Source: a virus (taxonomy: Duplodnaviria > Caudoviricetes). Taken from it: 64,000 bases of DNA. This document shows, piece after piece, positions 6,756 through 18,492 of this stretch. The stretch is taken from positions 1-64,000 of the IMG/VR virus record IMGVR_UViG_3300037780_000050; one strand, written 5' to 3'. Numbering within the stretch: the first letter of the stretch is position 1; each line of letters begins with the position of its first letter. Below the pieces are notes generated by a model, which was not told the DNA's origin, did not search any database, and saw only the letters and a list, made by a program, of their open reading frames with translations. The position numbers and the translations under genes were made by a program.

Positions 6756-8618
6756 ATGGCTCCCAAGGTCAGACTCAGTGAGATCGTCCGCGACATGTCC
6801 ACCGCGGACCGCGATCGGCAGCTTTCCACGATCTTCGCCGAGGAGCCGGTGCCGCTCACCACGTTCGTGACCGATGCCAAGTTCCTGGCCAACCCCAAGC
6901 TCTCCCCGGTGCAGTACGACGCGGTGCGGGCGATCGAGCGGGTGTTGTACCAGCAGACGTACGAGATGATGACGCTGGAGTGGGGCGAGTATTGGGAGCC
7001 TCTGCACCCCCAGAACTTCATCACCCTCCAGTGGGGCAAGGGCTCCGGCAAGGATCACATCTGCCGCATGGGCGCGCTGCGGGTGTGCTACCTGCTCAAC
7101 TGTATGCACGACCCTCTGACCTACTACGGGATGCCTCCGCAGGACACCATCCACGTCCTCAACGTGGCCAGCAGCTCCAACCAGGCCCAGCAGGCGTTCT
7201 TCATCCCCATGTCCCGCGCCGTGAAGCGGGGGTGGTTCGCCGACATGTGCGAGCCCAAGATGAACACCATCTCGTGGGAGAAGAACGTGGAGTGCATCAG
7301 CGGTCACTCCGACTCGGAGTCCCAGGAGGGTCTCAACATCTTGCTGGGCATCGCGGATGAGATCGATGCCTTCAAGACCAAGGAGGAGCTGGAGCGCTTC
7401 CGTGGGCGCGGGTTGCGGGAGCCGGTCAAGAGCGCCGAGGCGATCCTCAAGATGATGCGCACCTCAGCCAGCACCCGGTTCCCCGACGTGTTCAAGAACG
7501 TGAGGATCTCTTACCCCCGGTTCAAGGGGTCCACCATCCAGCGGCTCACCCGGCTCGCTCGTGACGACATCGAGGCCCGAGGTGAGAAGTCCCGCCACTA
7601 CGTCAGCGGTCCGCTGCCCACGTGGGAGGTCAACCCCCGGGTGTCGGGCAAGGAGGACTTCCAAGAGGACTACGACGAAGACGAGGCCATGGCGCGGGGC
7701 ATGTACGAGTGTGACCCCCAACTCGCCCAGGAGAACCTCTACTTCACGAATCTCGATGCGTGGGACGCCGCGGAGTACGTCAAGGACGACCAACCGCTGG
7801 AGATCACCTATCACTGGGAGAACAACGCATGGCAGGTCGAGTTCCACTTCGCTCCGTGGCTCGTTCCCATCGAGGGGGCGCGCTACGCGCTCCACGGCGA
7901 CATCGCCATCAGCGGCGACAAGGCAGGCATCGCCATGAGTCACGTACAGTCGTGGAAGGATGGCGAGTTGTTGACCGAGGACGAGCGTGGGCGAGAGGTG
8001 AAGATCCCGACATCTTTGCCGTTCGTCAAGAACGACTTCGTGGCCAGCTTCACCGCAGATGTCCATGCCCATCCCGCACCGCGCGAGGTGCAGGTGCGGT
8101 GGTACCGGCAGTTGCTGTGGGAGTTGCAGCGTCGTGGGTTCTACGTGTGCCGCTACACCTTCGACCAGTTCCAGAGCACCGACTCCCAGCAGATCATCGA
8201 GTTGGCGGGCGTGGAGACCGACACGGTGTCGATGGACCGCAACGACTTGCCGTGGAAGACCCTGCGGGACGTGGTGTACGACGGCCGCTTCTCGATCCAG
8301 TACCGGGAGTCGCTCCGTGAGGAGATCTTCGCACTGGGGCGCACCAATCAGGGCAAGGTGGACCATCCACCGGGCGGTAGCAAGGACGAGGCCGATGCGC
8401 TCTGTGGAAGCGTTCTCGGGGCGCTCACGGTGGGAGGTGCGGAGAGCACAGAGGGCGAGACATCGGTGGCCGGAGGGTTGATGGGGCCTGCCGTGACCGA
8501 TGACTATGTGGAGATGGGTGCCGCCGACGACTTCATGTTCGGCCCAGATGCCGGAGACGCCGCGGGCGACTTCGACTTCTTCGGGCTCGATGACAGCGAC
8601 GCCATGAGTTGGAGCTAG
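6756..8618 (+). CDS. terL: terminase large subunit
   Basis: Walker A WGKGSGKD, Walker B GIADEIDAF, RNase H-like C-terminus (HGDIA, FDQFQS, DHPPGGSKDEADA); precedes the portal. Confidence 0.9.
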   Translation: MAPKVRLSEIVRDMSTADRDRQLSTIFAEEPVPLTTFVTDAKFLANPKLSPVQYDAVRAIERVLYQQTYEMMTLEWGEYWEPLHPQNFITLQWGKGSGKDHICRMGALRVCYLLNCMHDPLTYYGMPPQDTIHVLNVASSSNQAQQAFFIPMSRAVKRGWFADMCEPKMNTISWEKNVECISGHSDSESQEGLNILLGIADEIDAFKTKEELERFRGRGLREPVKSAEAILKMMRTSASTRFPDVFKNVRISYPRFKGSTIQRLTRLARDDIEARGEKSRHYVSGPLPTWEVNPRVSGKEDFQEDYDEDEAMARGMYECDPQLAQENLYFTNLDAWDAAEYVKDDQPLEITYHWENNAWQVEFHFAPWLVPIEGARYALHGDIAISGDKAGIAMSHVQSWKDGELLTEDERGREVKIPTSLPFVKNDFVASFTADVHAHPAPREVQVRWYRQLLWELQRRGFYVCRYTFDQFQSTDSQQIIELAGVETDTVSMDRNDLPWKTLRDVVYDGRFSIQYRESLREEIFALGRTNQGKVDHPPGGSKDEADALCGSVLGALTVGGAESTEGETSVAGGLMGPAVTDDYVEMGAADDFMFGPDAGDAAGDFDFFGLDDSDAMSWS

Positions 8619-8626
8619 GAGACGAG

Positions 8627-10312
8627 ATGGACGGATACCCCGCAGACGACGTGCTGTCGCTGGCGCATGGTGACCCCTTGTCTCCATGCGACCCTGAGCC
8701 CAAGCTGTATCAGGGCATGGGCGAGGAGATGGGCGTCACGCTGGATCTCCCGTTCTCCAACCTGTTGAAGGAGGCCGACGGCAAGCGTCACTACGAGGTC
8801 TTCAACCCCGAGCCGATCACCATCGAGCGGTTGGTCAACATGCGCCGCAGTGACGCTCAGGTCCGGGCACTGATGCGCATGGTGACCCTGCCGGTCCGGG
8901 CTGCGCTGCGCGATCACCACGTCCATGCCGATCAGGGCGGCGAGGCCGAGGCCGAGTTCGTCAAGAACATGCTCAATCTCCCTGCTCCCGCGGGTGGGAT
9001 GGTCACGCCTTTCCGTCAGGTGATCAACCAGGCGCTGTTGGCGATCGTGGACGGCTTCGCCGCATTCGAGCTGGTCTACAAGATGCCGACCGACGGACCG
9101 CTGGCTGGCAAGTACACGCTGCACAAGATCGCACGACGCCCGCCCCACACGGTCACCTTCACCACCAACGAGCAGGGCGAGTTCTGCGGCATCCGCCAGC
9201 GCACCACGCTGCACGGTCGGACCATCGATGCCCACATCCCGAAGGGCAACGTGTTCTACTTCGCCGCCCAGGAGGAGGAGAACCCCATGTACGGGGTGAG
9301 CTACTTCCTCCCGGCGTATTGGCACCACGACAAGAAGATCAAGCTCTACTACCTGATGCATCTCGCTGCGCAGATGTATGCCGTTCCCGGTCGGGTCGGC
9401 AAGGAGCCACCGAACGCTTCCAAGCAGCAGAAGGATGCCTTCTTCCGGGCTCTCAAGGACTACGGACTCGGTGGAGCGATGCGGCTGCCGATGGGTTTCG
9501 AGTTCGAGGAGTTCCAGCGCAAGGTCGATCTCTCGCAGTTCATCGCCGCCATCAACCACCACAACACGATGATGTCCAAGTCCGTGCTCGCCCAGGAGGC
9601 GCTGGATCAGGGCGAGCGAGAGAGCACCCCCTTCATCAGCAACTCCAGCGACGCTGCTGACATCTTCATGCAGCAGGTCGCCACGATCATGGAGGATCTC
9701 GAATCCAAGATCAACGAGCTGCTCATTCCGAAGTTCATCGATTGGAACTTCGGGACGACCAAGTACCCCCGCTGGGAGTTCGCCGATCTCTCCAGCGAGC
9801 AGCGCGACGTCATCCACGAGATGTTCGGCGCGTTGGCCACCAGCCCGAGTGTCAACGTCACCCCCGACTTCGTGTTCGAGCTGGAGCGCTCCGTCGCCAC
9901 CGAGTTGGGGATGGGCGATTTGGACTACGAGGGCCAGCTCAAGCGGGAGTTCCAAGAGCGCAAGCAGATGGAGCTGGACAAGGACAAGGCCCAGTTGGAG
10001 CAGGCCGAGGCCATGGCCGAACAGGCCGAGAACAAGGCCAAGAACCCGATGCCGTCTCCCGGCATTGGTGGTCCTGGCGGGGGCGGTCCGGGTGCGGCCA
10101 CGCCGGGCGGTCCCGGGCGCAATCCTCTCGATGAGCCCGGCATCGAGGCTCGGCGGGGCAAGTTGCCCCCCGGGCGCGCCGGAGAGCGGGTCAAGCGCGA
10201 CGCCAAGGCGTCGCTCAGTGCTGAGCAGACACCATCTCTCGACACCATCGGCCCGCCCGTGCTGCTCAGTGACGTGGCGCGCCGGTTGATGGAGCGGTAC
10301 GGCGTCGAGTAG
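8627..10312 (+). CDS. portal protein (DUF935/Mu gp29-like)
   Basis: position after TerL, size, NPMYGVSY and LIPKFIDWNF motifs; Gly/Pro-rich tail. Confidence 0.85.
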   Translation: MDGYPADDVLSLAHGDPLSPCDPEPKLYQGMGEEMGVTLDLPFSNLLKEADGKRHYEVFNPEPITIERLVNMRRSDAQVRALMRMVTLPVRAALRDHHVHADQGGEAEAEFVKNMLNLPAPAGGMVTPFRQVINQALLAIVDGFAAFELVYKMPTDGPLAGKYTLHKIARRPPHTVTFTTNEQGEFCGIRQRTTLHGRTIDAHIPKGNVFYFAAQEEENPMYGVSYFLPAYWHHDKKIKLYYLMHLAAQMYAVPGRVGKEPPNASKQQKDAFFRALKDYGLGGAMRLPMGFEFEEFQRKVDLSQFIAAINHHNTMMSKSVLAQEALDQGERESTPFISNSSDAADIFMQQVATIMEDLESKINELLIPKFIDWNFGTTKYPRWEFADLSSEQRDVIHEMFGALATSPSVNVTPDFVFELERSVATELGMGDLDYEGQLKREFQERKQMELDKDKAQLEQAEAMAEQAENKAKNPMPSPGIGGPGGGGPGAATPGGPGRNPLDEPGIEARRGKLPPGRAGERVKRDAKASLSAEQTPSLDTIGPPVLLSDVARRLMERYGVE

Positions 10313-10316
10313 CGCC

Positions 10317-11489
10317 ATGGCGATCGCAGAGATTGACCCCGAGGACGCCGCGCTGCTGATCGGGCTCGCCAGCGGCGGGTTCGGCGATGTCATGGACATG
10401 GTGACGGCCAACCAGGCTGGTCTGCGAGCCATCGAGACCGGGGCCGCGGCCAAGGCCCGGGCTGCGTACTCCGAGGCCATCGATCAGTGGTTGGACTACG
10501 TGGCCACCATCGTGGAGAACAACCCCGGCCGGGACTTCGCCCAGATCATCGGACGCAGCGATGTGCAGACCCTGCTCAGTGGTGTGGTGAACGTCGCCAG
10601 CAATCAGGTGCGGGAGATCGTGGGCGAGGCGTGGGACGCAGGGGGAGCGCTCGGCGCCGCGCACGCCATCGCCGAGTTGAAGGCCATGGGGCTCCCGGTC
10701 CCCGACATCAGCCCCAGCGTCTTCCAGAGTGGATATCTGGACAGCGTGCTGGGGGACATGGACATGCGGGCCACCGAGGCCATCGGACGCATCCTGGCCG
10801 CTGCCGAGGAGGGCTTCGACAGCGTGGAGTTGGACGTGAGTGACGCCGCGAACACCAACGTGCGCCAGCGCTTCGCTCGCCAGCGCGCCGCCGCGCTGCG
10901 AGCCCAGTCCATGCGGGAGGCGTCCAAGCTCGGCAACAGCGCTTCTGCGGGCGCCAGCGTCGTGGCGAACCGTTCCTACTCCGAGGCCCAGATCGAGGCG
11001 TACGTGGGCTCCCAGGCGGCTCTGGAGGTCGATGGGCAGGGCAACCGCCGCATCCGCAAGGTGTGGGTCACCGCGTTCCGCCCCACGACGTGCGGGACGT
11101 GCGCCAGCCTGCACGGCACGGTGGTCGACATCGAGGTCCAGTTCGACCACGCCCAGACCTTCGCCCCCAAAGCACCGCGGGTGTACTCCGATCTCCAGGC
11201 CCCGCCGCGGCATCCGAATTGTGGGTGCCGGTTGGTGCCCTTCGTGGAGGGTGAGAGTGGTGAGATCGATCCCGAGGCGATGCGGGCCTACGGCAAGGAG
11301 TGGGCCGAGACCCATGAGGGGATGGCTCCGGCCACGTTCCCGAAGGAGACCCCGGAGTTCTCATCTGTTGCCAACGACACCGCGTTCATGACCAGCGCCG
11401 ACGTGAAGGCCATGTCCGACGGTCAGTTCGAGGCCAGCATCGACCAGTTCTTGCAGTGCGTGTTCTTCCGGTTCGGCGGTCCGTCGTGA
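10317..11489 (+). CDS. MuF/SPP1 gp7-like head morphogenesis protein
   Basis: KVWVT...TCGTCASLHG...PPRHPNCGCRL signature. Confidence 0.85.
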   Translation: MAIAEIDPEDAALLIGLASGGFGDVMDMVTANQAGLRAIETGAAAKARAAYSEAIDQWLDYVATIVENNPGRDFAQIIGRSDVQTLLSGVVNVASNQVREIVGEAWDAGGALGAAHAIAELKAMGLPVPDISPSVFQSGYLDSVLGDMDMRATEAIGRILAAAEEGFDSVELDVSDAANTNVRQRFARQRAAALRAQSMREASKLGNSASAGASVVANRSYSEAQIEAYVGSQAALEVDGQGNRRIRKVWVTAFRPTTCGTCASLHGTVVDIEVQFDHAQTFAPKAPRVYSDLQAPPRHPNCGCRLVPFVEGESGEIDPEAMRAYGKEWAETHEGMAPATFPKETPEFSSVANDTAFMTSADVKAMSDGQFEASIDQFLQCVFFRFGGPS

Positions 11490-11695
11490 TCGTCAAGGCC
11501 ACCGACGAGCGTCAGATGGCCGCGGTGATGGTCGCGGTGTTGGAGTTCGCTCGCTCCGAGCCTGAGGAGTTCGTGTTCGGCCCGTTCAACCGCAAGCAGT
11601 TGATGGAGACTGGTCTGGTCGCAGAGGGTGACATCGATCGGCTGCGAGACCACATCGAGTCGCAGTTCCCGGCGATCGAGATCTCCGATGGCTGA
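11486..11695 (+). CDS. hypothetical protein
   Basis: GTGA overlap with MuF; overlaps the next start. Confidence 0.65.
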   Translation: MIVKATDERQMAAVMVAVLEFARSEPEEFVFGPFNRKQLMETGLVAEGDIDRLRDHIESQFPAIEISDG

Positions 11696-14600
11696 CTGTT
11701 TCGCTGATCTCAAAGCCAACCTCACCGACGACGAGGGCGCGCTCGCCTATGTCGCAGATTCCACCATGTGGTTGAAGGGCAAGACCGCGGGCTTCGACAA
11801 CAGCCAGCTCTGGGAGTGGCTCGCCGACCCCGACGCCAAGTCCACGATCGCCACCTTCATCGACCAGTTCATCGAGGCCCAGAAGACCCCCGGGCTGGGC
11901 AAGAGCGCCAAGGACAATCTGGGCCGTCAGCGCAAGCGCTTCACCGTGATCCAGAACCTCCAGACGCTGCTCACCGAGGGGCCGTCGCTCGACGCCGACA
12001 CCATCGATGAGCTGTGGGACTTCGTGGTCACCAACGGGTCCAAGAAGACCTTCTTCCCGAAGGACTTCCCGTTCCAGACCGACGAGGAGTTCCTGGCCAA
12101 GGGCGCCGAGTTCGTCCAGGCGCTCAAGACACCGCAGTTGGTCACCCAGATCCCCGCTCAGACCCTCCCAGGAGGCTCTGTGACGGTCTCGGTGGCCCAG
12201 GTGCAGGAAGCCATCGACGCGGTGTCCAGCCACGGCCAGAACCACGTCAAGAAGGCGCTGGCGAGCCTTGGTGATGACCACCCTCTCAGTGAGCTGGACT
12301 ACCACGCCGTCACCGAGCTGTTCCACGGCGGGCCGAAGCCCAAGGGCGTCACCACCAAGCAGTCGGTGATCGATTGGCTGGAGTCCCAGAAGGACGCGGC
12401 CACTCCGGGCGTGCCTGAGATCCCGACAGCGCCACTCAAGCCCAACGTGGTGATCTCGTCGCCTACGCCCGACGTGGTGCCAGACATCCCCACCACACCC
12501 AAGGCCCCGATCGTCCCCGACGTGCCGGAGCCCCCGAAGCCGGACATCCCGGTCAAGATCGGTCCCGAGACACCGAAGACCCCACCGGAGCCGGTCTTCA
12601 CCACCAGCCAGGTCCAGATCGAGGTCACCGACGGAACCCACCCCAAGCTGTTCTTGCAGGATCAGGACGGCGGGCAGTGGATGTTCAAGTGGTTCAGCCG
12701 CAGCGGTGAGGAGTTCCGCAGCGATGTGGAGCACTACGCCCATGAGGCCGGTCAGTTGTTCGGCTTCGACATGGCCGACTCTCGTCTGATCGATTGGGGA
12801 GGCCACTACGGCCAGGTGCAGAAGCTGTGGGACGGCTCGGACTTGACCGGCGTCAGCCTGCGAGATCTCAGCGCTGATCAGTGGGACCAGCTCGCCCAAC
12901 ACCATCTGTTGGACTGGTTGCTCGACAACGACGACAGTCACGCAGCGAACATCTTCCAGCTCGCCCACGACGGATCGATCGTCGGTATCGACAAGGGCCG
13001 CGCCTTCGCCCACTTCGGTACGGGGCGTCACCAGCTCAAGCTCGGCAGCATGAGCCGCCAGAACCACGTGGTGTACGAGGACTTGTACCGGCTGCTGCAC
13101 AGCACCAGCGCTGGACGGGACAAGCTCGATGAGATCTACCGCTCGGTGATGGCGCGGGCCAAGGCCATGGAGGCGGTGGATGACGACGCGTACCGGGAGG
13201 TGTTGGAGAAGTTGCTGGCCGGGCGTACCAACTACTCCACGACATCCGCAGCCAACCGGGATCAGCTCATCGGTCAGATCATCGATCGCAAGAACAGCCT
13301 CGCCGACGACTTCGACCGGTTCTACGATCAGGTGTACCAGCGAGCTGGTCTGGCGAAGCCCAAGCTGCGTGAGGTGGATGTGCGAGATCCCCTCCCCGAG
13401 GTGCGGCGCGCCGGAGGTCCCCCGAAGACGGCCAAGGCCAAGGCGTGGAGCGGCTACAGCGACGACTACTTCGAGGCCGTGATCCAGTCCAGGGCTCATG
13501 GCCAGGCCACGTTCTGGGGTGGCAAGGACGCAGCCAAGATCCGCAACCAGCAGGAGTTCCTGTGGTGGGAGCGTGACCGCAGCGTGTCCAGCGGTGTCCG
13601 TTTGCGGGGCGAGATGAAGCTCCGCGCTGACGGCGATGCCGACATGATGCAGTTCCTGGCGCGCTACACCGACACCAGCGCTCCCACCACCGGGGCGGTG
13701 AGGACTCCTCTCGATGAGGTGTGGGACCACGACAAGCGCTTCGGCGAGATGGTGGAGGCAGCCAAGACGATCAACCACCACGTCAACGACGGCGCCTACA
13801 ACCCCAACCGCATCGCCACGCTGCCCGACATCCGCAGGGAGTTGGAAGATCTTCGCAGTCGGGCGTTCACCGACAAGAGCGACGAGTGGCGTGCCGCGCT
13901 GCACGAGCAGATCCGTGGGTACATCGGCGATCTGGATGTGCTCGAAGAAGCGATGCGCACCCAGACAGCGCTGCCGTACCACATCAACAAGCGCATCGTG
14001 GAGGTGGTGCACCCGAAGTCGAGCGCTGTGCCGCCAGCCAGGTACACCGTGCGCAGGTTGGACGAGATTCCCCACGATGCCCGCAGCGCCACGATGGGTA
14101 GCTATGACTCCGATGAGGGTCTCGCTGATGTGGTCGGCAATGGTGACAAGTCTCATGGCCGCATGTTCGAGATCGAGGTCAGCGACAACGTGACCGTCAC
14201 CTACGTTCCCTACGGAACGAATCTCGACACCTACCGCAACAACGACATCATCATGAGCGCCCAGGGAAGGCTTCGCTTCACGGTCAAGGAATACACCGGC
14301 CCCGACGACTTGAAGGTGTGGCGTAAGTTCTTGGATGACGCTGGGTTCACCCTCAGTCCCGCCCAGGACACCGACTTGGAGCTGATGTATTGGCGCATGT
14401 TCTACGAGACCGCCAACCAGTTCAAGACCAGCCCCAAGTGGCGCGCCGCACTACGTGAGCGAGATGCATGGCGCAAGCGTGATCCCGATCCGACTCCCGA
14501 GGAGGAGATCGCGTTCCTCAGAGGCAATCTGGTCGATGCCGGTGTGCTCGATTCGTCCCAGGTGCGTGCAGTGGCTGCCGACAGGAAGTGGGCTCCGCGT

Positions 14601-15272
14601 TACCACCGCCAGGACGTGTTCAATCCTGACGCAGAGAACGGCAGGGCGTGGTGGGAGCGTCCTGACTTCGATGTCGACGCTGTTGATCGTGAGTTGACGC
14701 ACTGGCCGTCCAGTTTGTGGACGGCTCGGGATGGGACGACCATCAACGAGGCTTTGCGGTCTGGTGGGATGCTCTCGACCGAGGAGCGGCTCCGCAAGCT
14801 CCACAAGGTGTCGACCCCGCCAGGCAAGACGATGAGTGCGGCTGATGATCAGCTTTCTGGTGGAGCCAACTACGTGTTTACCAGGCTCAATATTCATCCA
14901 AATGGCGGTCATGAAGTTTGGTACAACCCAAGTGTTGTTGGTCGCATGTCTTCGTATGCCTTTGGTGGTGACAGTTATGGACGGGTCAAAGGTAGAGAAA
15001 GTGAGTCGTTCAACTTCTTCGACTGGCTCAGCAACTTTGGCAGCGGCAACGAGCTGATGCCGAGAGATGTGGTCACGTTGCTCGATGAGATCGAGTTGGT
15101 GGTATTCCCCACCGCCAGTGAGCGGGACAGTTTCCTCAAATGGATCAGATCGTCTGGTGTCACTCGTATTCGTGGAGTACCAGTAGAAGACCGGTTCATC
15201 ACGCGCCGGTCCGATGTTGAAGGTGCGCTGCGCAAGGTTCAGGAGGCGTGGCGCAGAAGGAGAGGACGATGA
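11688..15272 (+). CDS. large multidomain protein: N-terminal domain, Pro-rich linker, PI3/4-kinase/HipA-like kinase domain, possible C-terminal ADP-ribosyltransferase-like domain
   Basis: GTHPK..WMFK..E..DWLLDNDDSHAANI..IDKGRAF; C-terminal ALRSGGMLS..GGANYVFTR..GNELM. Confidence 0.8.
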   Translation: MADCFADLKANLTDDEGALAYVADSTMWLKGKTAGFDNSQLWEWLADPDAKSTIATFIDQFIEAQKTPGLGKSAKDNLGRQRKRFTVIQNLQTLLTEGPSLDADTIDELWDFVVTNGSKKTFFPKDFPFQTDEEFLAKGAEFVQALKTPQLVTQIPAQTLPGGSVTVSVAQVQEAIDAVSSHGQNHVKKALASLGDDHPLSELDYHAVTELFHGGPKPKGVTTKQSVIDWLESQKDAATPGVPEIPTAPLKPNVVISSPTPDVVPDIPTTPKAPIVPDVPEPPKPDIPVKIGPETPKTPPEPVFTTSQVQIEVTDGTHPKLFLQDQDGGQWMFKWFSRSGEEFRSDVEHYAHEAGQLFGFDMADSRLIDWGGHYGQVQKLWDGSDLTGVSLRDLSADQWDQLAQHHLLDWLLDNDDSHAANIFQLAHDGSIVGIDKGRAFAHFGTGRHQLKLGSMSRQNHVVYEDLYRLLHSTSAGRDKLDEIYRSVMARAKAMEAVDDDAYREVLEKLLAGRTNYSTTSAANRDQLIGQIIDRKNSLADDFDRFYDQVYQRAGLAKPKLREVDVRDPLPEVRRAGGPPKTAKAKAWSGYSDDYFEAVIQSRAHGQATFWGGKDAAKIRNQQEFLWWERDRSVSSGVRLRGEMKLRADGDADMMQFLARYTDTSAPTTGAVRTPLDEVWDHDKRFGEMVEAAKTINHHVNDGAYNPNRIATLPDIRRELEDLRSRAFTDKSDEWRAALHEQIRGYIGDLDVLEEAMRTQTALPYHINKRIVEVVHPKSSAVPPARYTVRRLDEIPHDARSATMGSYDSDEGLADVVGNGDKSHGRMFEIEVSDNVTVTYVPYGTNLDTYRNNDIIMSAQGRLRFTVKEYTGPDDLKVWRKFLDDAGFTLSPAQDTDLELMYWRMFYETANQFKTSPKWRAALRERDAWRKRDPDPTPEEEIAFLRGNLVDAGVLDSSQVRAVAADRKWAPRYHRQDVFNPDAENGRAWWERPDFDVDAVDRELTHWPSSLWTARDGTTINEALRSGGMLSTEERLRKLHKVSTPPGKTMSAADDQLSGGANYVFTRLNIHPNGGHEVWYNPSVVGRMSSYAFGGDSYGRVKGRESESFNFFDWLSNFGSGNELMPRDVVTLLDEIELVVFPTASERDSFLKWIRSSGVTRIRGVPVEDRFITRRSDVEGALRKVQEAWRRRRGR

Positions 15273-15613
15273 ACGCCCAGGAGTTCGCAGAGCAGGCTGA
15301 GGAGCGGTTGGCCGCGCTCACCGAGTGGTTGGGTTCTCAGCCCTACCGGGCGTGGGTGGAGGACGAGCGCACGGTCGCGCTCACGGGTGGGGTCCAGGGG
15401 TTGATGTACGTCAGCGTGAGCGCCATGACCGACGACACCACCACGGTGGACATCTTCAATGACGGTGGTCCTCCCCGCAGCATCGTGTTCGATTGGCCGT
15501 GGTTGCAGCTCCCGCCGTCGCGCTACAAGCCCAACGCCGTTCGCTCCCGGGAGCGGGAGATGGAGTGGGACTTCCCGGTCACCGTGGTACTCGGGACGCA
15601 GGTCGAGCGATGA
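15269..15613 (+). CDS. hypothetical protein
   Basis: ATGA-coupled to the large gene; GAGG RBS. Confidence 0.7.
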   Translation: MNAQEFAEQAEERLAALTEWLGSQPYRAWVEDERTVALTGGVQGLMYVSVSAMTDDTTTVDIFNDGGPPRSIVFDWPWLQLPPSRYKPNAVRSREREMEWDFPVTVVLGTQVER

Positions 15614-15951
15614 CGCTGTGGGCGGTGCACCACCACCCTCAGACGCTGGTGCCGGTCGGGGTGTGGACCGATGTCGGCTCGGATGAAGGAGGCTTCGGGT
15701 ATGCCGTGGCCTACTCCGACCAGTATCAATCGATGGCCGAGGTGGCTCAGTTGGTGATGGCGCAGCGTGGTGCTGGAGTGCAATGGGGTGAGTGGGTCGC
15801 GGCCTTGACCTACATGACCCAACCTAAGGCTGTCTGGTCGTCGTGGGTAGCGCCTTCGTCAGCTTCCCCACTCGATGTCATCAACGCTGTCATCGACAGT
15901 CATGACGCGTCCATGCAACAGAAGCGCAAGCTCGCCATCGAGGGGTTGTGA
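15610..15951 (+). CDS. hypothetical protein
   Basis: ATGA-coupled (MTLWAVHHH...). Confidence 0.7.
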   Translation: MTLWAVHHHPQTLVPVGVWTDVGSDEGGFGYAVAYSDQYQSMAEVAQLVMAQRGAGVQWGEWVAALTYMTQPKAVWSSWVAPSSASPLDVINAVIDSHDASMQQKRKLAIEGL

Positions 15952-15969
15952 CGCTTCATCTGCCGATGA
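15945..15969 (+). promoter_or_regulatory. candidate late promoter GTTG-N10-TCTGCCGAT
   Basis: same motif and spacing at 19177; GCCGAT resembles the sigma28 -10. Confidence 0.45.
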
Positions 15970-15976
15970 ATCGCAC

Positions 15977-17080
15977 ATGGCAACAGGTCGCTTTCTCGCA
16001 CCGGGGGTACGTGGCGCCAGCTTCGTAGCCTTGGGCCGCTCCCGCCAGGGTCGGTTGTTCCGCAAGCAGATTCTCCACCGCGGCACGCTCCGTCACCCGA
16101 CCACGGGTGACGAGATCGTCGTGGATGACGCGTTCCTCAGCCGGGTCGTGGAGAACTTCAACAACAACGTGTGCGACATCGTGCAGGTTCCGTTGGCCAA
16201 CGATGCCAACGAGCATGTGGAGGATCCCGACCGCAACATCGGTGAGGTCATCGGTGTGGAGGCCGGAGAGGGCGGTCTCTACGCGCTCATCGATGCTCGT
16301 TCCGAGGAGCACGCCGACAAGCTCGGACGCACCCTGTTGGGTGCCAGTGCTCTGATGCATCTCAACTACACCGATTCCTCCACTGGGGAGGCCGTCGGTC
16401 CCACCCTGCTGCATGTCGCGGTCACCAACCGTCCTTACGTGACCGAGTTGGAAGGGTTCGAGGAGATCTTGGCGGCAACGGCCGATGGTTCAGGGGAAGA
16501 AGCTGCGGTGTTCGTGGCATCCGACGCAGAAGGAGACGATTCGAGCATGGATCTGGACAAGATCAAGGCTCTGTTGAAGGATGAGCACGAGATCGATCTC
16601 GATGCGCTGCTCGATTCCAACACCACCGAGCCCACCGAGGAGCAGGTCGCCGCAGCCGCCAAGAAGATCTTGGAAGACGCTGGCGTTGCCCTTTCCAACA
16701 CCAGCGCCGACGCTTCCAGCGTCAGCGATGCGCTCAAGCTGGAGCTGACCAAGCGTGACACCGCCATCGAGGCGCTCACCGGCACGGTCGAGGCGCTCCA
16801 GCTCAGCCAGACCCAGGCTCGGGTGGATGGTCTCGTCGCGACCGGTCACGTCCTTCCCGCCCAGCGGGACGCGATGATCCAGCTCGCTCGTACCGACGAG
16901 AAGCTGTTCGAGAGCCTCATCCCCGAGAAGCCTCTGGTGCAGCTCACCAGCCCGGCCCAGGGCGTCGATCTCCCCGACAAGGACACGGACACCGTGGAGT
17001 TGTCCGGCTCCGATCTCGATGCCGAGATCGCTCGTCTCATGAACGAGCAGTCCGACTACTTCAAGACCAAGGAGGGCTGA
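15977..17080 (+). CDS. prohead protease/scaffold (Mu I-like)
   Basis: HVAVTNRPYV motif, coiled-coil C-terminal half, upstream of decoration and capsid genes. Confidence 0.8.
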   Translation: MATGRFLAPGVRGASFVALGRSRQGRLFRKQILHRGTLRHPTTGDEIVVDDAFLSRVVENFNNNVCDIVQVPLANDANEHVEDPDRNIGEVIGVEAGEGGLYALIDARSEEHADKLGRTLLGASALMHLNYTDSSTGEAVGPTLLHVAVTNRPYVTELEGFEEILAATADGSGEEAAVFVASDAEGDDSSMDLDKIKALLKDEHEIDLDALLDSNTTEPTEEQVAAAAKKILEDAGVALSNTSADASSVSDALKLELTKRDTAIEALTGTVEALQLSQTQARVDGLVATGHVLPAQRDAMIQLARTDEKLFESLIPEKPLVQLTSPAQGVDLPDKDTDTVELSGSDLDAEIARLMNEQSDYFKTKEG

Positions 17081-17083
17081 TCC

Positions 17084-17482
17084 ATGTCCATCAACGAGCA
17101 GCTCGGCAACGAAGTTCCGGTTCCCGGTTTCACCGAGGGCGCCTATCTCGATGACTACGAGATCATGGCGTCGATGAAGGGTGGCTTCACCCAGATCGGT
17201 GTCACCATCGCCAGCGGGCAGGGAATCCTCCCGGCAGGCACTGTGCTCGGCGAGGTCACCGCGACCGGCAAGTTCGCCGTGTACGACAACGGCGCCAGCG
17301 ATGGCACCGAGGTCGCTCGCGGTGTTCTCCGCAAGCGAGTCGACACCACCGACGGTGACGTGCTCGGCAATCTCGTCATCAGCGGCATCGTGTACAACTC
17401 GAAGTTGAGCGGGATGGACGCCAACGCCATCACCGATCTCAACGGCCGTGCCGACACCGTGACCGATCGATTCCGGTTCTGA
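17084..17482 (+). CDS. head decoration protein (lambda gpD-like)
   Basis: GTVLGEVTATGKFAVYD..ASDG motif; position. Confidence 0.85.
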   Translation: MSINEQLGNEVPVPGFTEGAYLDDYEIMASMKGGFTQIGVTIASGQGILPAGTVLGEVTATGKFAVYDNGASDGTEVARGVLRKRVDTTDGDVLGNLVISGIVYNSKLSGMDANAITDLNGRADTVTDRFRF

Positions 17483-17496
17483 GGAGGATCTGAACC

Positions 17497-18492
17497 ATGC
17501 CCGACATCAGTCTTCTCCAGCCGACCGTCCTTCGGGGCGTTGTCGAGAAGTTCACGGCTCCCGAGAGCCTCATCATGCTCAACCGTCTGCCCCGGCAGCC
17601 GTGGCCCTACCCCACCATGTCGTGGGACATCATCCAGGGCAGCCGCATGGTGGCCAAGCCCAACGTGCCCAACAGCGAGGCCCACATCGTGCCCCGCCTC
17701 GGACGCGGGCGTGCCAGCGCTTCGTTCATCTACCTTCGTGAGAAGAAGGTGTTCGAGCCCACGACCCTCCACTGGATCAGGGAGCCCGGCCAGATCGCCC
17801 GGACCAACGCCGAGGCGGCGGTCATGCGTGAGGTCAACGATCTGAACCAGCGGTTCGACAACTACGCCGAACGCCAGATCTGGCAGGCGCTCACTGGCAC
17901 GATCACGATCTCCACGCTGGAAGTCAACGCCACGGTCAACTATCAGTTCGCCGGGTCCCACCTCCCCACCGTGGGCACTTCGTGGGCGACGGCGACTCCG
18001 CAGCAGATCGTGGCCAACATCCGCACGTGGAAGCGTCTCGTCGCTCGTGACGGTCGCGTTCCGGCGCGGGAGGCGTTCTGCACCGAGGTGTCGATGTCCC
18101 GCATCTTCGAGAGCTTCACCGCCGACGCAGACGCCGCGTCGCTGCTCTCGGACCGGATGAAGGACTCGTACTACCAGACCGGCATGATCCCCGGTTTCAT
18201 GGGGCTCAACTGGACGGTCACCGAGTCCATCTACGACGACGACAACGGCACCGACACCCTGTTCGTGCCAGACGACACCCTGTTCCTGGGGAACTTCACG
18301 GACAACCGGCCGATCTACTTGGCCGAGGGTCCGACCGCCGACGACGACGCTCCCAGTGGCTTCACCGGCAAGTTCGCCAAGACTTGGAAGGAGCCGGACC
18401 CCTCGGGTCGTCAGTACCTTCTGGAGTGGAACATGCTTCCGGTCATCGAGCGCCCGGAGCAGTTCGTCTACGTCGCTGATCTGACGCCGTAG
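17497..18492 (+). CDS. major capsid protein (lambda gpE-like)
   Basis: 331 aa after the decoration gene, EPDPSG motif, followed by a strong terminator. Confidence 0.88.
   Translation: MPDISLLQPTVLRGVVEKFTAPESLIMLNRLPRQPWPYPTMSWDIIQGSRMVAKPNVPNSEAHIVPRLGRGRASASFIYLREKKVFEPTTLHWIREPGQIARTNAEAAVMREVNDLNQRFDNYAERQIWQALTGTITISTLEVNATVNYQFAGSHLPTVGTSWATATPQQIVANIRTWKRLVARDGRVPAREAFCTEVSMSRIFESFTADADAASLLSDRMKDSYYQTGMIPGFMGLNWTVTESIYDDDNGTDTLFVPDDTLFLGNFTDNRPIYLAEGPTADDDAPSGFTGKFAKTWKEPDPSGRQYLLEWNMLPVIERPEQFVYVADLTP

Follow-up and report, generated by a model that had tools for sequence, protein, structure and literature searches.

What does a protein of 1,194 residues do in the middle of a phage head operon? 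Proteins that a phage sends into the cell along with its DNA are at work ahead of any phage gene expression, and this timing makes them prime candidates for shutting off the host and disarming its defense systems. Could the product of the large gene at 11688 to 15272 (plus strand), here called P0001, be a protein of this kind? The gene lies in a window of 64,000 nucleotides, by which we mean the whole stretch of DNA that was analyzed (positions 1 to 64,000 of IMG/VR record IMGVR_UViG_3300037780_000050, Caudoviricetes); the source record is 84 kb long and has terminal repeats. A sequence-only reading of the window had proposed an injected effector that combines an atypical kinase domain with a possible ADP-ribosyltransferase (ART)-like C-terminal domain. 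We see about an even chance that P0001 is a head-packaged, injected dual-enzyme effector with the two predicted activities, which would place it among the polyvalent, MuF-linked phage effectors, a class already known.

A large gene coupled into the head-assembly run

The gene at 11688 to 15272 is real: frame 1 is open over 1,194 codons, in keeping with the protein of about 1,190 residues that had been called there, and every motif quoted in that reading was found at its place in the translation. The start methionine is common to the homologs P0002 (72% identity) and P0003 (55% identity). An antisense open reading frame at 11586 to 14156 (856 codons) was also considered as a gene; nothing supports it, and we read it as a by-product of high G+C content. 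A nucleotide search against a phage collection returned no match.

Upstream lie a Mu-type portal (8609 to 10312) and, as a separate gene, a MuF-type minor head protein (10317 to 11489, plus strand), which has a weak match to Pfam Phage_Mu_F and matches to the PHROG minor head and head morphogenesis families. Downstream are a Mu-like prohead protease (15875 to 17080), a decoration protein (17084 to 17482), and the major capsid protein (17497 to 18492). P0001 had been placed between MuF and the protease; both do flank it, but three small coupled genes also intervene, all on the plus strand. One is a conserved gene of 69 residues between MuF and P0001 (11486 to 11695), whose GTG overlaps the MuF stop codon and whose own stop codon overlaps the ATG at 11688 (ATGGCTGA). 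The other two, of 114 residues (15269 to 15613) and 113 residues (15610 to 15951), follow P0001, and the ATGA coupling of the former was read in the sequence. Overlaps of start and stop codons thus chain MuF, the 69-residue gene, P0001, and the downstream small genes. The order is conserved in related loci: terminase, Mu-type portal, and MuF come first, then a small gene, the large gene, and a further two small genes, and last the protease, the decoration protein, and the capsid protein. Searches of the record found no integrase and no match to Macro or NADAR. The absence of an integrase from the 84 kb fits a role in infection better than one in competition between lysogens.

The central domain is predicted to fold as an atypical kinase

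Database searches with the whole of P0001 said little about its function: Pfam gave only sub-threshold kinase matches, PHROGs and PADLOC gave nothing, and no meaningful match to PDB chains came from either sequence or profile searches. Structure prediction was more informative. After an N-terminal domain (residues 1 to 240; 11688 to 12407, plus strand, as for all parts of the protein), which is found only in P0001, P0002, P0003, and P0007 and has no Pfam or PHROG family match, and a proline-rich linker read from the sequence (about residues 241 to 295; 12408 to 12572), the AlphaFold2 model has a central domain at residues 296 to 552 (12573 to 13343) with pLDDT values mostly of 80 to 98.

In VIA, this domain matched PI4KII-alpha (Z 14.6; rmsd 4.0 over 229 aligned residues), CtkA (Z 14.5), MavQ (Z 12.6), actin-fragmin kinase (Z 12.2), and HipA (Z 12.1), and all 50 of the 50 matches listed for it were kinases. 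The best Foldseek matches were CtkA, actin-fragmin kinase, and HipA. The quoted motifs lie as follows: GTHPK at residues 316 to 320, WMFK ending in K334, DWLLDNDDSHAANI beginning at nucleotide 12912 (D409 to I422), and IDKGRAF beginning at nucleotide 12987 (I434). In an alignment of 48 sequences, K334, D409, D416, and D435 are invariant, and H406 and N414 are at least 90% conserved; within the close family, conservation extends to E348, H418, and N421. The ATP-binding lysine, the helix-C glutamate, the D-x-H-x-x-N loop, and the metal-binding aspartate are all present, with roles assigned by position and not by superposition. HipA_C (PF07804) matched P0001 at 19.1 bits (E 0.0011), below its gathering cut-off of 30.5 bits, and matched 19 of 23 family members with a best E value of 3.5e-7, none of them reaching a Pfam cut-off. 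With high confidence, we assign residues 296 to 552 to a predicted atypical kinase fold of the PI3/4K-HipA-CtkA group, the outcome of the structure prediction that had been set earlier as the test of the kinase claim. Kinase folds may catalyze other transfers, and relatives of this one include lipid kinases, so that the fold by itself is no proof of protein phosphorylation.

The C terminus resembles ADP-ribosyltransferase folds

Between the kinase and the C terminus lies a conserved middle region (residues 592 to 866; 13461 to 14285) that is confidently folded in the model and carries the conserved motif AAKTIxxHxxDxxYN at residues 691 to 705. Pfam on pieces of this region, PDB sequence and profile searches, and Atlas returned nothing; fold searches with the 899-residue model returned kinase matches throughout, and the fold class of the middle region is not thereby called new. 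It is followed by a subdomain of five helices (residues 872 to 964; 14301 to 14579; model pLDDT 93.5) with a DLELxYWR motif in which the close family shows no variation at E898, L899, Y901, W902, and R903.

The last domain (residues 971 to 1194; 14598 to 15269) holds the candidate catalytic residue E1122 and was recognized by VIA and Foldseek as an ART fold. Its VIA matches were DarT1 (Z 9.6; rmsd 3.9 over 155 aligned residues), DarTG (Z 8.3 to 8.4), Thermus DarT (Z 6.8 to 8.0), Mycobacterium tuberculosis DarT (Z 7.4), SopF (Z 6.3 to 6.5), Tpt1 (Z 5.6), and OspC3 (Z 5.0). The eight best structural matches were all DarT or SopF, with Tpt1, OspC3, CopC, and cholera toxin A1 lower. The Z score for DarT1 is somewhat over the 7 to 8 often reached by chance and amounts to moderate fold similarity; the best Foldseek matches, SopF and DarT1, had weak E values of 0.05 to 0.5. 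The DarT Pfam model (PF14487) had no match in the 84-kb record even at E ≤ 10.

Which residues could be catalytic? The motifs picked out earlier map to residues 1022 to 1030 (ALRSGGMLS), 1058 to 1066 (GGANYVFTR), and 1120 to 1124 (GNELM). Conservation in the 48-sequence alignment reaches at least 90% at S1050, D1054, R1066, R1086, D1095, N1121, and E1122. This level of conservation, or invariance, shows that neither the kinase motifs nor the C-terminal ones are chance patterns. Across deep divergence, D1054, R1086, D1095, and E1122 are kept and R1066 varies; in the model, E1122 opens a strand after a long loop. R991, R1034, R1066, and R1086 are the candidate arginines and residues 1030 and 1031 a candidate S-T pair, and the candidate registers of the active site are a DarT-like one with R1066 and an R-S-E-like one with R991, S1030, and E1122. 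No canonical H-Y-E or R-S-E triad was assignable in this domain, in agreement with the remark in the sequence-only reading that the first catalytic His or Arg was not evident; the ART-like C terminus that it had described in loose terms is borne out by the predicted fold. With moderate confidence, residues 872 to 1194 are modeled as a helical subdomain plus an ART fold nearest to DarT1. The likeness to DarT and SopF holds at the level of the fold only, and the choice of catalytic residues is not certain.

The kinase and the ART domain are kept together

Is the C terminus an exchangeable tip or a lasting partner of the kinase? In a representative library clustered at 50% identity, P0001 has 925 homologs at E ≤ 0.001, of which 252 remain at E ≤ 1e-30. 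Many are giant (2,000 to 3,900 residues), some carry MuF, NUDIX, or WGR domains, and the phages that bear the cassette differ widely in G+C content. Of the 158 proteins in the homolog set, query included, 157 have both a kinase and an ART domain; the set was ranked by a whole-protein query and so favors proteins with both. Among 19 IMG/VR proteins that at first appeared to have the kinase only, 15 proved to carry a divergent copy of the ART domain at the extreme C terminus, although their middle regions have no detectable relationship. Both domains persist in divergent giant phage proteins, even with a different middle. Pfam searches of five kinase-only relatives found nothing past a weak PI3_PI4_kinase match. 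The kinase domain by itself occurs in gp195 of Mycobacterium phage Phrappuccino, next to a virion structural protein.

The ART domain stands at the C-terminal end of most homologs, followed by a median of 12 residues, and the most conserved stretch of the divergent members is the extreme C-terminal NGVPxEDFVV. The conserved module comprises 880 residues; N termini vary, and the C-terminal module is kept. Identity between P0001 and P0002 is unbroken at the C-terminal tip. Among about 186,000 species genomes, the cassette was found at one locus. Judged from these comparisons, the C terminus is a conserved partner of the kinase and not the exchangeable tip of a polymorphic toxin.

The near-obligate pairing suggests a shared target or coupled chemistry. 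The cassette is abundant, with its 925 clusters, and common among uncultured phages, yet it lies mostly outside Pfam. In the literature, we found no published description of this kinase-ART cassette, no experimental study of it, and no specific study of a packaged phage kinase of the HipA-like or PI3/4K-like type.

Links to MuF and to the neighboring small genes

The association with MuF that had been suggested by gene order is seen within single proteins, since some homologs have MuF and the module in one polypeptide; fusions to MuF or Phage_min_cap2 both occur. The separate MuF of this locus (10317 to 11489) has counterparts both in the N-terminal parts of six large-protein homologs and among the separate MuF genes of related loci, to all of which it is homologous. 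Homologs of the 69-residue gene occupy the same slot at two of these (L004 and L018), and another gene of 69 residues fills the slot beside P0007.

Joint folding of MuF, the 69-residue protein, and residues 1 to 295 of P0001 scored 0.42, against 0.00 for the best control. Of 80 solved complexes, 58 scored at least this high, as did 2 of 110 mismatched pairs, and scores of 0.60 or less are more often wrong than right unless the complex was likely beforehand. At least 29% of contacts were shared between runs, and partner pLDDT was no lower than 68. These models hint weakly at an association of the three, and because MuF is unfused here, packaging would depend on this weakly supported interaction. 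The unfused form, with its conserved 69-residue gene between MuF and cargo, offers a system in which the recruitment of cargo to the head can be studied.

The two downstream genes differ in conservation. For the first (15269 to 15613), neither phmmer nor the profiles of two slot families found relatives, and at least three unrelated families fill its slot in related loci. The second (15610 to 15951) belongs to a conserved family, as recognized by a profile from nine related loci (E 4.5e-12). Over roughly the final 300 codons of P0001, GC3 is far below that of the rest of the gene, and in the first downstream gene it is normal (0.88). In Microbacterium phage Magritte, a close structural relative whose capsid protein is 62% identical, an unrelated protein of 1,991 residues sits in the slot. 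Magritte gp17 was tried as a homolog of P0001 and rejected, as no similarity was found.

Proposed mechanism and alternative explanations

How might such a protein act? We infer a route in which P0001 would be made late, from the coupled run of MuF, the 69-residue gene, the large gene, and the two small genes; would probably be brought into the prohead via MuF and the portal; and would be released into the host cytoplasm along with the DNA. There, the HipA/CtkA/PI4K-like kinase, with its full catalytic set, is predicted to phosphorylate a host protein on Ser/Thr, and the DarT/SopF-like ART-fold domain is predicted to modify a host macromolecule using NAD+. Since the two domains are kept together over deep divergence, they would most likely converge on a single target or pathway, in the earliest phase of infection, for host takeover or counter-defense. 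A bolder version, which we consider very improbable, is an obligate two-step machine in which the kinase phosphorylates its target, at the side chain of a protein or the end of a nucleic acid, and the DarT/Tpt1-like domain links ADP-ribose either to the new phosphate or to the target so primed. It would explain why the pair is kept where the regions between are replaced and why the same kinase occurs with an unrelated ART in mycobacterial prophages; if true, it would be a composite modification delivered from a capsid.

It is unlikely, in our judgment, that the kinase alone is the effector and that the ART-fold domain is instead an NAD+ hydrolase, a ligand-binding domain, or a handle for recruitment to the prohead. 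The varying R1066 and unassignable triad would suit such a role, as would the lack of a sequence match to DarT, the terminal position of the domain in most homologs, and the conservation peak at NGVPxEDFVV, as expected of a docking element. However, the four residues kept over deep divergence (D1054, R1086, D1095, and E1122) are acidic and basic residues of the active-site type, and M. abscessus prophages pair the same kinase with a canonical ART, which indicates that ART chemistry travels with the kinase. Quite unlikely, too, is a P0001 that is not injected and acts late in the producing cell or in head assembly, modifying capsid or host proteins. Its gene is encoded and coupled inside the head-assembly run, and two small genes always follow, one of them conserved, as assembly partners might be; against this, the MuF fusions of the module match the architecture of head-packaged cargo as PMC5512222 and PMC5576092 describe it, and the unrelated protein in the Magritte slot, despite the related capsid protein, marks the module as replaceable cargo and not a core assembly part.

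Finally, might P0001 be a polymorphic toxin with immunity genes downstream, for use by a lysogen against competitors? Two coupled small genes do follow it, the first slot varies between loci, the GC3 of its last codons is low, and Bxa, an ART of the MuF family, has two immunity proteins (PMC11699363). Yet a conserved C terminus with a variable N terminus is the reverse of a polymorphic toxin, identity to P0002 runs unbroken through the tip, the cassette was found at only a single locus among the species genomes, the first downstream gene has normal GC3, and the record is without an integrase and without a Macro or NADAR gene. We regard this explanation as very unlikely and prefer the injected dual-enzyme effector.

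Comparison with known systems

The idea that phages package ARTs and polyvalent effectors in the head is already established (PMC5512222, PMC9503650, PMC5576092). In the first two of these sources, polyvalent effectors are described as large proteins of several domains whose genes neighbor portal and MuF and which are proposed to be injected with the DNA; ART is the modifying domain that they carry most often, and others include kinases, Nudix, and 2H. P0001 resembles the effectors of Iyer et al. (2017, 2022) in its size, multiple domains, effector-type enzymes, and place beside portal and MuF, although MuF is a separate gene in its locus. The kinase of those effectors is of a protein-kinase group from which the C-terminal subdomain has been lost and which comes mainly from phages of Verrucomicrobia and Bacteroidetes, whereas that of P0001 is HipA/CtkA/PI4K-like with a full C-lobe; the accessible parts of PMC5512222 and PMC9503650 hold no description of a fixed cassette of kinase and DarT-like ART.

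MuF polymorphic toxins (Jamet et al. 2017, PMC5576092) and Bxa-Bsi-BAH (PMC11699363) share with P0001 a MuF-linked C-terminal enzyme, often an ART, and small genes downstream. In them MuF is conserved and the tip variable, and they occur almost only in temperate phages, whereas P0001 has a conserved tip, an unfused MuF, and no integrase; PMC5576092 mentions no kinase for them. DarT of DarTG (8BAQ, 7OMV; PMC11543638, PMC9967889) is the best structural match to residues about 992 to 1179, but identity is 8%, the Pfam DarT model does not match, no DarG or NADAR partner is present, and the ART-fold domain, unlike DarT, is embedded in a protein of 1,194 residues. HipA, CtkA, actin-fragmin kinase, and type II PI4-kinase share with P0001 the fold (Z 12 to 14.6) and the D-x-H-x-x-N ... 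D arrangement; unlike HipA, P0001 is without the HipA N-terminal domain and a HipB partner and is encoded in a phage head operon.

Another relative is the "minor capsid and ADP-ribosyltransferase fusion" of M. abscessus and M. chelonae prophages (McProf gp54 type), likewise a head protein that ends in an ART. Its kinase-like domain is homologous to that of P0001 (24% identity, E 5e-22; profile E 2.5e-40), but it has a VG15/MuF-type N terminus and a canonical C3-like ADPrib_exo_Tox domain, unlike P0001. The kinase-like domain is unannotated in these prophage records. Each activity also has a classical counterpart, as cited in PMC5512222 and PMC9503650: T4 Alt is a head-packaged, injected ART, and T7 Gp0.7 is a kinase by which host proteins are phosphorylated early in infection. 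These are separate proteins of different families and phages, whereas P0001 is predicted to unite both activities in one.

Results

The large gene (11688-15272, + strand) comprises 1194 codons open in frame, and the start methionine of its product, P0001, is common to two homologues, P0002 and P0003 (72% and 55% identity, respectively, along the whole protein). The window, with a G+C content of ∼63%, is part of a viral record of 83.9 kb that carries direct terminal repeats. The large gene is preceded by a Mu-type portal gene (8609-10312) and the gene for a minor head protein of the MuF type (10317-11489). On its downstream side are genes for a Mu-like prohead protease (15875-17080), a decoration protein of the lambda-D type, and a major capsid protein of the E type. 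As read in the sequence, the run of genes from MuF onward is translationally coupled by start/stop overlaps. A GTG at 11486, overlapped by the MuF stop, starts a 69-residue gene (11486-11695), and the stop of this gene in turn overlaps the large gene's ATG (ATGGCTGA). Two more genes follow, one of 114 residues (ATGA overlap at 15269) and one of 113 residues (ATGA overlap at 15610). Judged by the capsid protein, Microbacterium phage Magritte is the nearest phage in culture (62% identity), and the host is therefore probably an actinobacterium. An antisense frame of 856 codons (11586-14156, - strand) is open opposite the large gene; nothing supports it as a gene, and it is most likely a by-product of the high G+C.

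The sequence-only reading had described a kinase domain and a possible ADP-ribosyltransferase (ART)-like C-terminus in P0001. Direct reading of the sequence located all of its quoted motifs where it had placed them, and an alignment of 48 homologues (21 to 69% identity) confirmed the observation, with motif positions conserved far beyond chance. Residues K334, D409, D416, and D435 are invariant in this alignment, and conservation is 90% or higher at H406, N414, S1050, D1054, R1066, R1086, D1095, N1121, and E1122. A direct family search with P0001 returned sub-threshold matches only (HipA_C, 19.1 bits; Fam20C, 18.3 bits); among 23 members of the family, HipA_C matched 19 (best E 3.5e-7), and Fam20C and PI3_PI4_kinase matched 4 each. 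The proposed kinase fold for the central domain was supported when residues 296-1194 were modeled with AlphaFold2 from the 48-sequence alignment (mean pLDDT 86.6): the first rows of a Foldseek search of the PDB with this model were CtkA, actin-fragmin kinase, and HipA. A second structural search independent of Foldseek (VIA) aligned residues 296-552 with PI4KII-alpha (Z 14.6, rmsd 4.0, 229 residues aligned), CtkA (Z 14.5), ATM (Z 12.8), MavQ (Z 12.6), actin-fragmin kinase (Z 12.2), HipA (Z 12.1), and Fam20 (Z 11.9).

Residue roles in this domain were assigned by position and conservation rather than by superposition. In the model, K334 lies at the end of an N-lobe strand and E348 in the next helix. 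D416-x-H418-x-x-N421 fits the catalytic loop D-R-H-x-x-N / D-x-H-x-K-N, and D435 within IDKG corresponds to the DFG aspartate. Since conserved residues stand where a kinase needs them, we take the domain to be a predicted active phosphotransferase. HipA and CtkA, its bacterial structural relatives, phosphorylate proteins on Ser/Thr, so the first guess for its substrate is a protein; lipid kinases are just as near in fold as protein kinases.

Can the C-terminal region be assigned to a fold? A separate model of residues 872-1194 (pLDDT 93.5, pTM 0.90) consists of five helices followed by an alpha/beta core. Foldseek gave no strong match for this region; its top rows belonged to SopF, an ART from Salmonella (E 0.05 and 0.12), and to DarT1 (E 0.49). 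Thermus DarT, Thermosipho DarTG, and cholera toxin A1 appeared lower down. A wide structural search was led by DarT1 (Z 9.6, rmsd 3.9, 155 of 208 residues aligned), a value that by itself is modestly above those often reached by unmatched models. It was followed by Thermosipho DarTG (Z 8.3 to 8.4), Thermus DarT (Z 6.8 to 8.0), Mycobacterium tuberculosis DarT (Z 7.4), SopF (Z 6.3 to 6.5), Tpt1 (Z 5.6), OspC3 (Z 5.0), and CopC (Z 4.7), and unrelated rows covered the helical part only (Z ∼5). Because the list of matches is coherent, an ART fold is the best reading of the model. The suspected ART-like C-terminus is thus supported at the level of fold, and with it the structural part of the earlier interpretation. 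Membership in the DarT family is not supported: the Pfam DarT model had zero matches in the whole record even at E 10, and identity to DarT1 is 8%.

The ART glutamate begins a strand after a long loop. E1122 opens such a strand and is kept in most of the divergent members; R1086, D1095, G1098, and D1054 are also kept in divergent members, and R1066 is not. Two registers are possible for the candidate active site, one resembling R-S-E (R991, S1030/T1031, E1122) and the other resembling DarT (R1066, E1122). We consider the chances about even that the modeled domain would be an active transferase.

The 3′ end of the large gene also differs in composition. GC3 is mostly 0.85 to 0.95 and falls to 0.42 to 0.75 from about codon 900 to the stop (14390-15272); flanking genes have values of 0.75 to 0.88, relatives of the large gene show small drops only, and identity to the homologue P0002 is unbroken across the low-GC3 end. 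These data fit a replacement of the helical-plus-ART end, which may have come as a homologous segment from a lower-G+C phage.

Searching 1.84 billion cluster representatives returned 925 homologues at E ≤ 0.001, of which 252 reach E ≤ 1e-30. These proteins are mostly 1,000 to 3,900 residues long, and query residues 300-1190 align to their C-terminal end. Both the kinase and the ART parts were matched in 157 of 158 proteins (the query and retrieved homologues), with a median of 12 residues from the ART end to the C-terminus; this set was ranked by a whole-protein query, which favors proteins with both domains. In a less biased test, about half of 40 IMG/VR loci matched the kinase only. Close-family profiles revealed a divergent copy of this ART domain at the extreme C-terminus in 15 of the 19 kinase-only proteins (E 1e-14 to 1e-4) and marginal ART matches in 2 more, and the regions between kinase and ART were left entirely unmatched. 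The pair thus persists where the remaining protein has been replaced.

Several other arrangements were observed. A 124-kb IMG/VR contig encodes a 2806-residue protein with the full kinase-ART module (L023:475-8895) and a stand-alone 271-residue kinase copy (L024:5965-6780). In Mycobacterium phage Phrappuccino, gp195 (L048:6358-12450), a 2030-residue hypothetical protein adjoining a virion structural protein, has the same kinase domain at its N-terminus (profile E 2.6e-30) and no match to the ART profile. Viral predicted structures matching the kinase include proteins labeled ADP-ribosyltransferase, Nudix, 2H, portal, and head morphogenesis.

In related loci the genes likewise run from terminase through Mu-type portal, MuF, a small gene, the large gene, and two small genes to protease, decoration protein, and capsid protein. 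The module is fused to MuF or Phage_min_cap2 in some homologues, and six homologues have N-terminal parts that are homologous to the window's MuF protein. In the window's lineage MuF is a separate gene, followed first by the conserved 69-residue gene and then by the large gene. The product of the 69-residue gene, kept in the same slot in two related loci (L004 and L018), matches no family and could be an adaptor joining MuF and cargo. The N-terminal 240 residues of P0001 are common only to P0002, P0003, and P0007. A complex prediction for MuF, the 69-residue protein, and residues 1-295 scored 0.42 (runs 0.51, 0.02, and 0.42; best control, 0.00), with runs agreeing in at least 29% of contacts and partner pLDDT of at least 68. 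The mark it reached was reached by 58 of 80 solved complexes versus 2 of 110 mismatched pairs, and passes at or below 0.60 are wrong more often than right unless the pairing is likely beforehand; the predicted association would be a weak and small addition to the evidence from fusions.

In Magritte, MuF is followed instead by gp17 (L006:5926-11901), an unrelated hypothetical protein of 1991 residues, the sole match of which is a weak GNAT and which may be an alternative cargo within this head module. Because of this unrelated occupant, the slot after MuF appears to hold exchangeable cargo rather than a core head part. In the related 65-kb metagenomic phage contig L004 (1-4587), the terminase and Mu-type portal genes both carry an intein plus HNH domains, and the MuF-like gene encodes 1011 residues with the MuF C-terminal segment repeated.

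Could the large protein instead be a classical polymorphic toxin? Several points argue against this. In its family the C-terminus is conserved and the N-terminus is variable; the record lacks integrases of the tyrosine and serine types as well as Macro and NADAR genes; and a pattern scan covering prokaryotes at one genome per species gave one locus only, in a Cellvibrionaceae MAG. The second gene downstream (15610-15951) is a member (E 4.5e-12) of a conserved family found across related loci, that MAG among them. For the first (15269-15613), a search detected no relatives, and its slot is occupied by at least three families among related loci.

Discussion

The ideas of head-packaged ARTs, of effectors fused to MuF, and of polyvalent proteins are already established (PMC5512222, PMC9503650, PMC5576092); PMC5576092 makes no mention of a kinase. 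The kinase described for polyvalent proteins is of a different group from that of P0001 and lacks a C-lobe. Our literature searches found no published study of the kinase-ART cassette, a family that is unstudied, yet abundant. P0001 falls within an already known class, and its main draw is the near-obligate pairing of two enzyme folds, together with that abundance. Prophage proteins of Mycobacterium abscessus and M. chelonae annotated as "minor capsid and ADP-ribosyltransferase fusion" contain the same kinase domain, preceded by a VG15/MuF-type N-terminus and followed by a canonical C3-like ART. Particular to the window are the unfused MuF with its 69-residue gene, an N-terminal domain restricted to the lineage, and the shift in composition.
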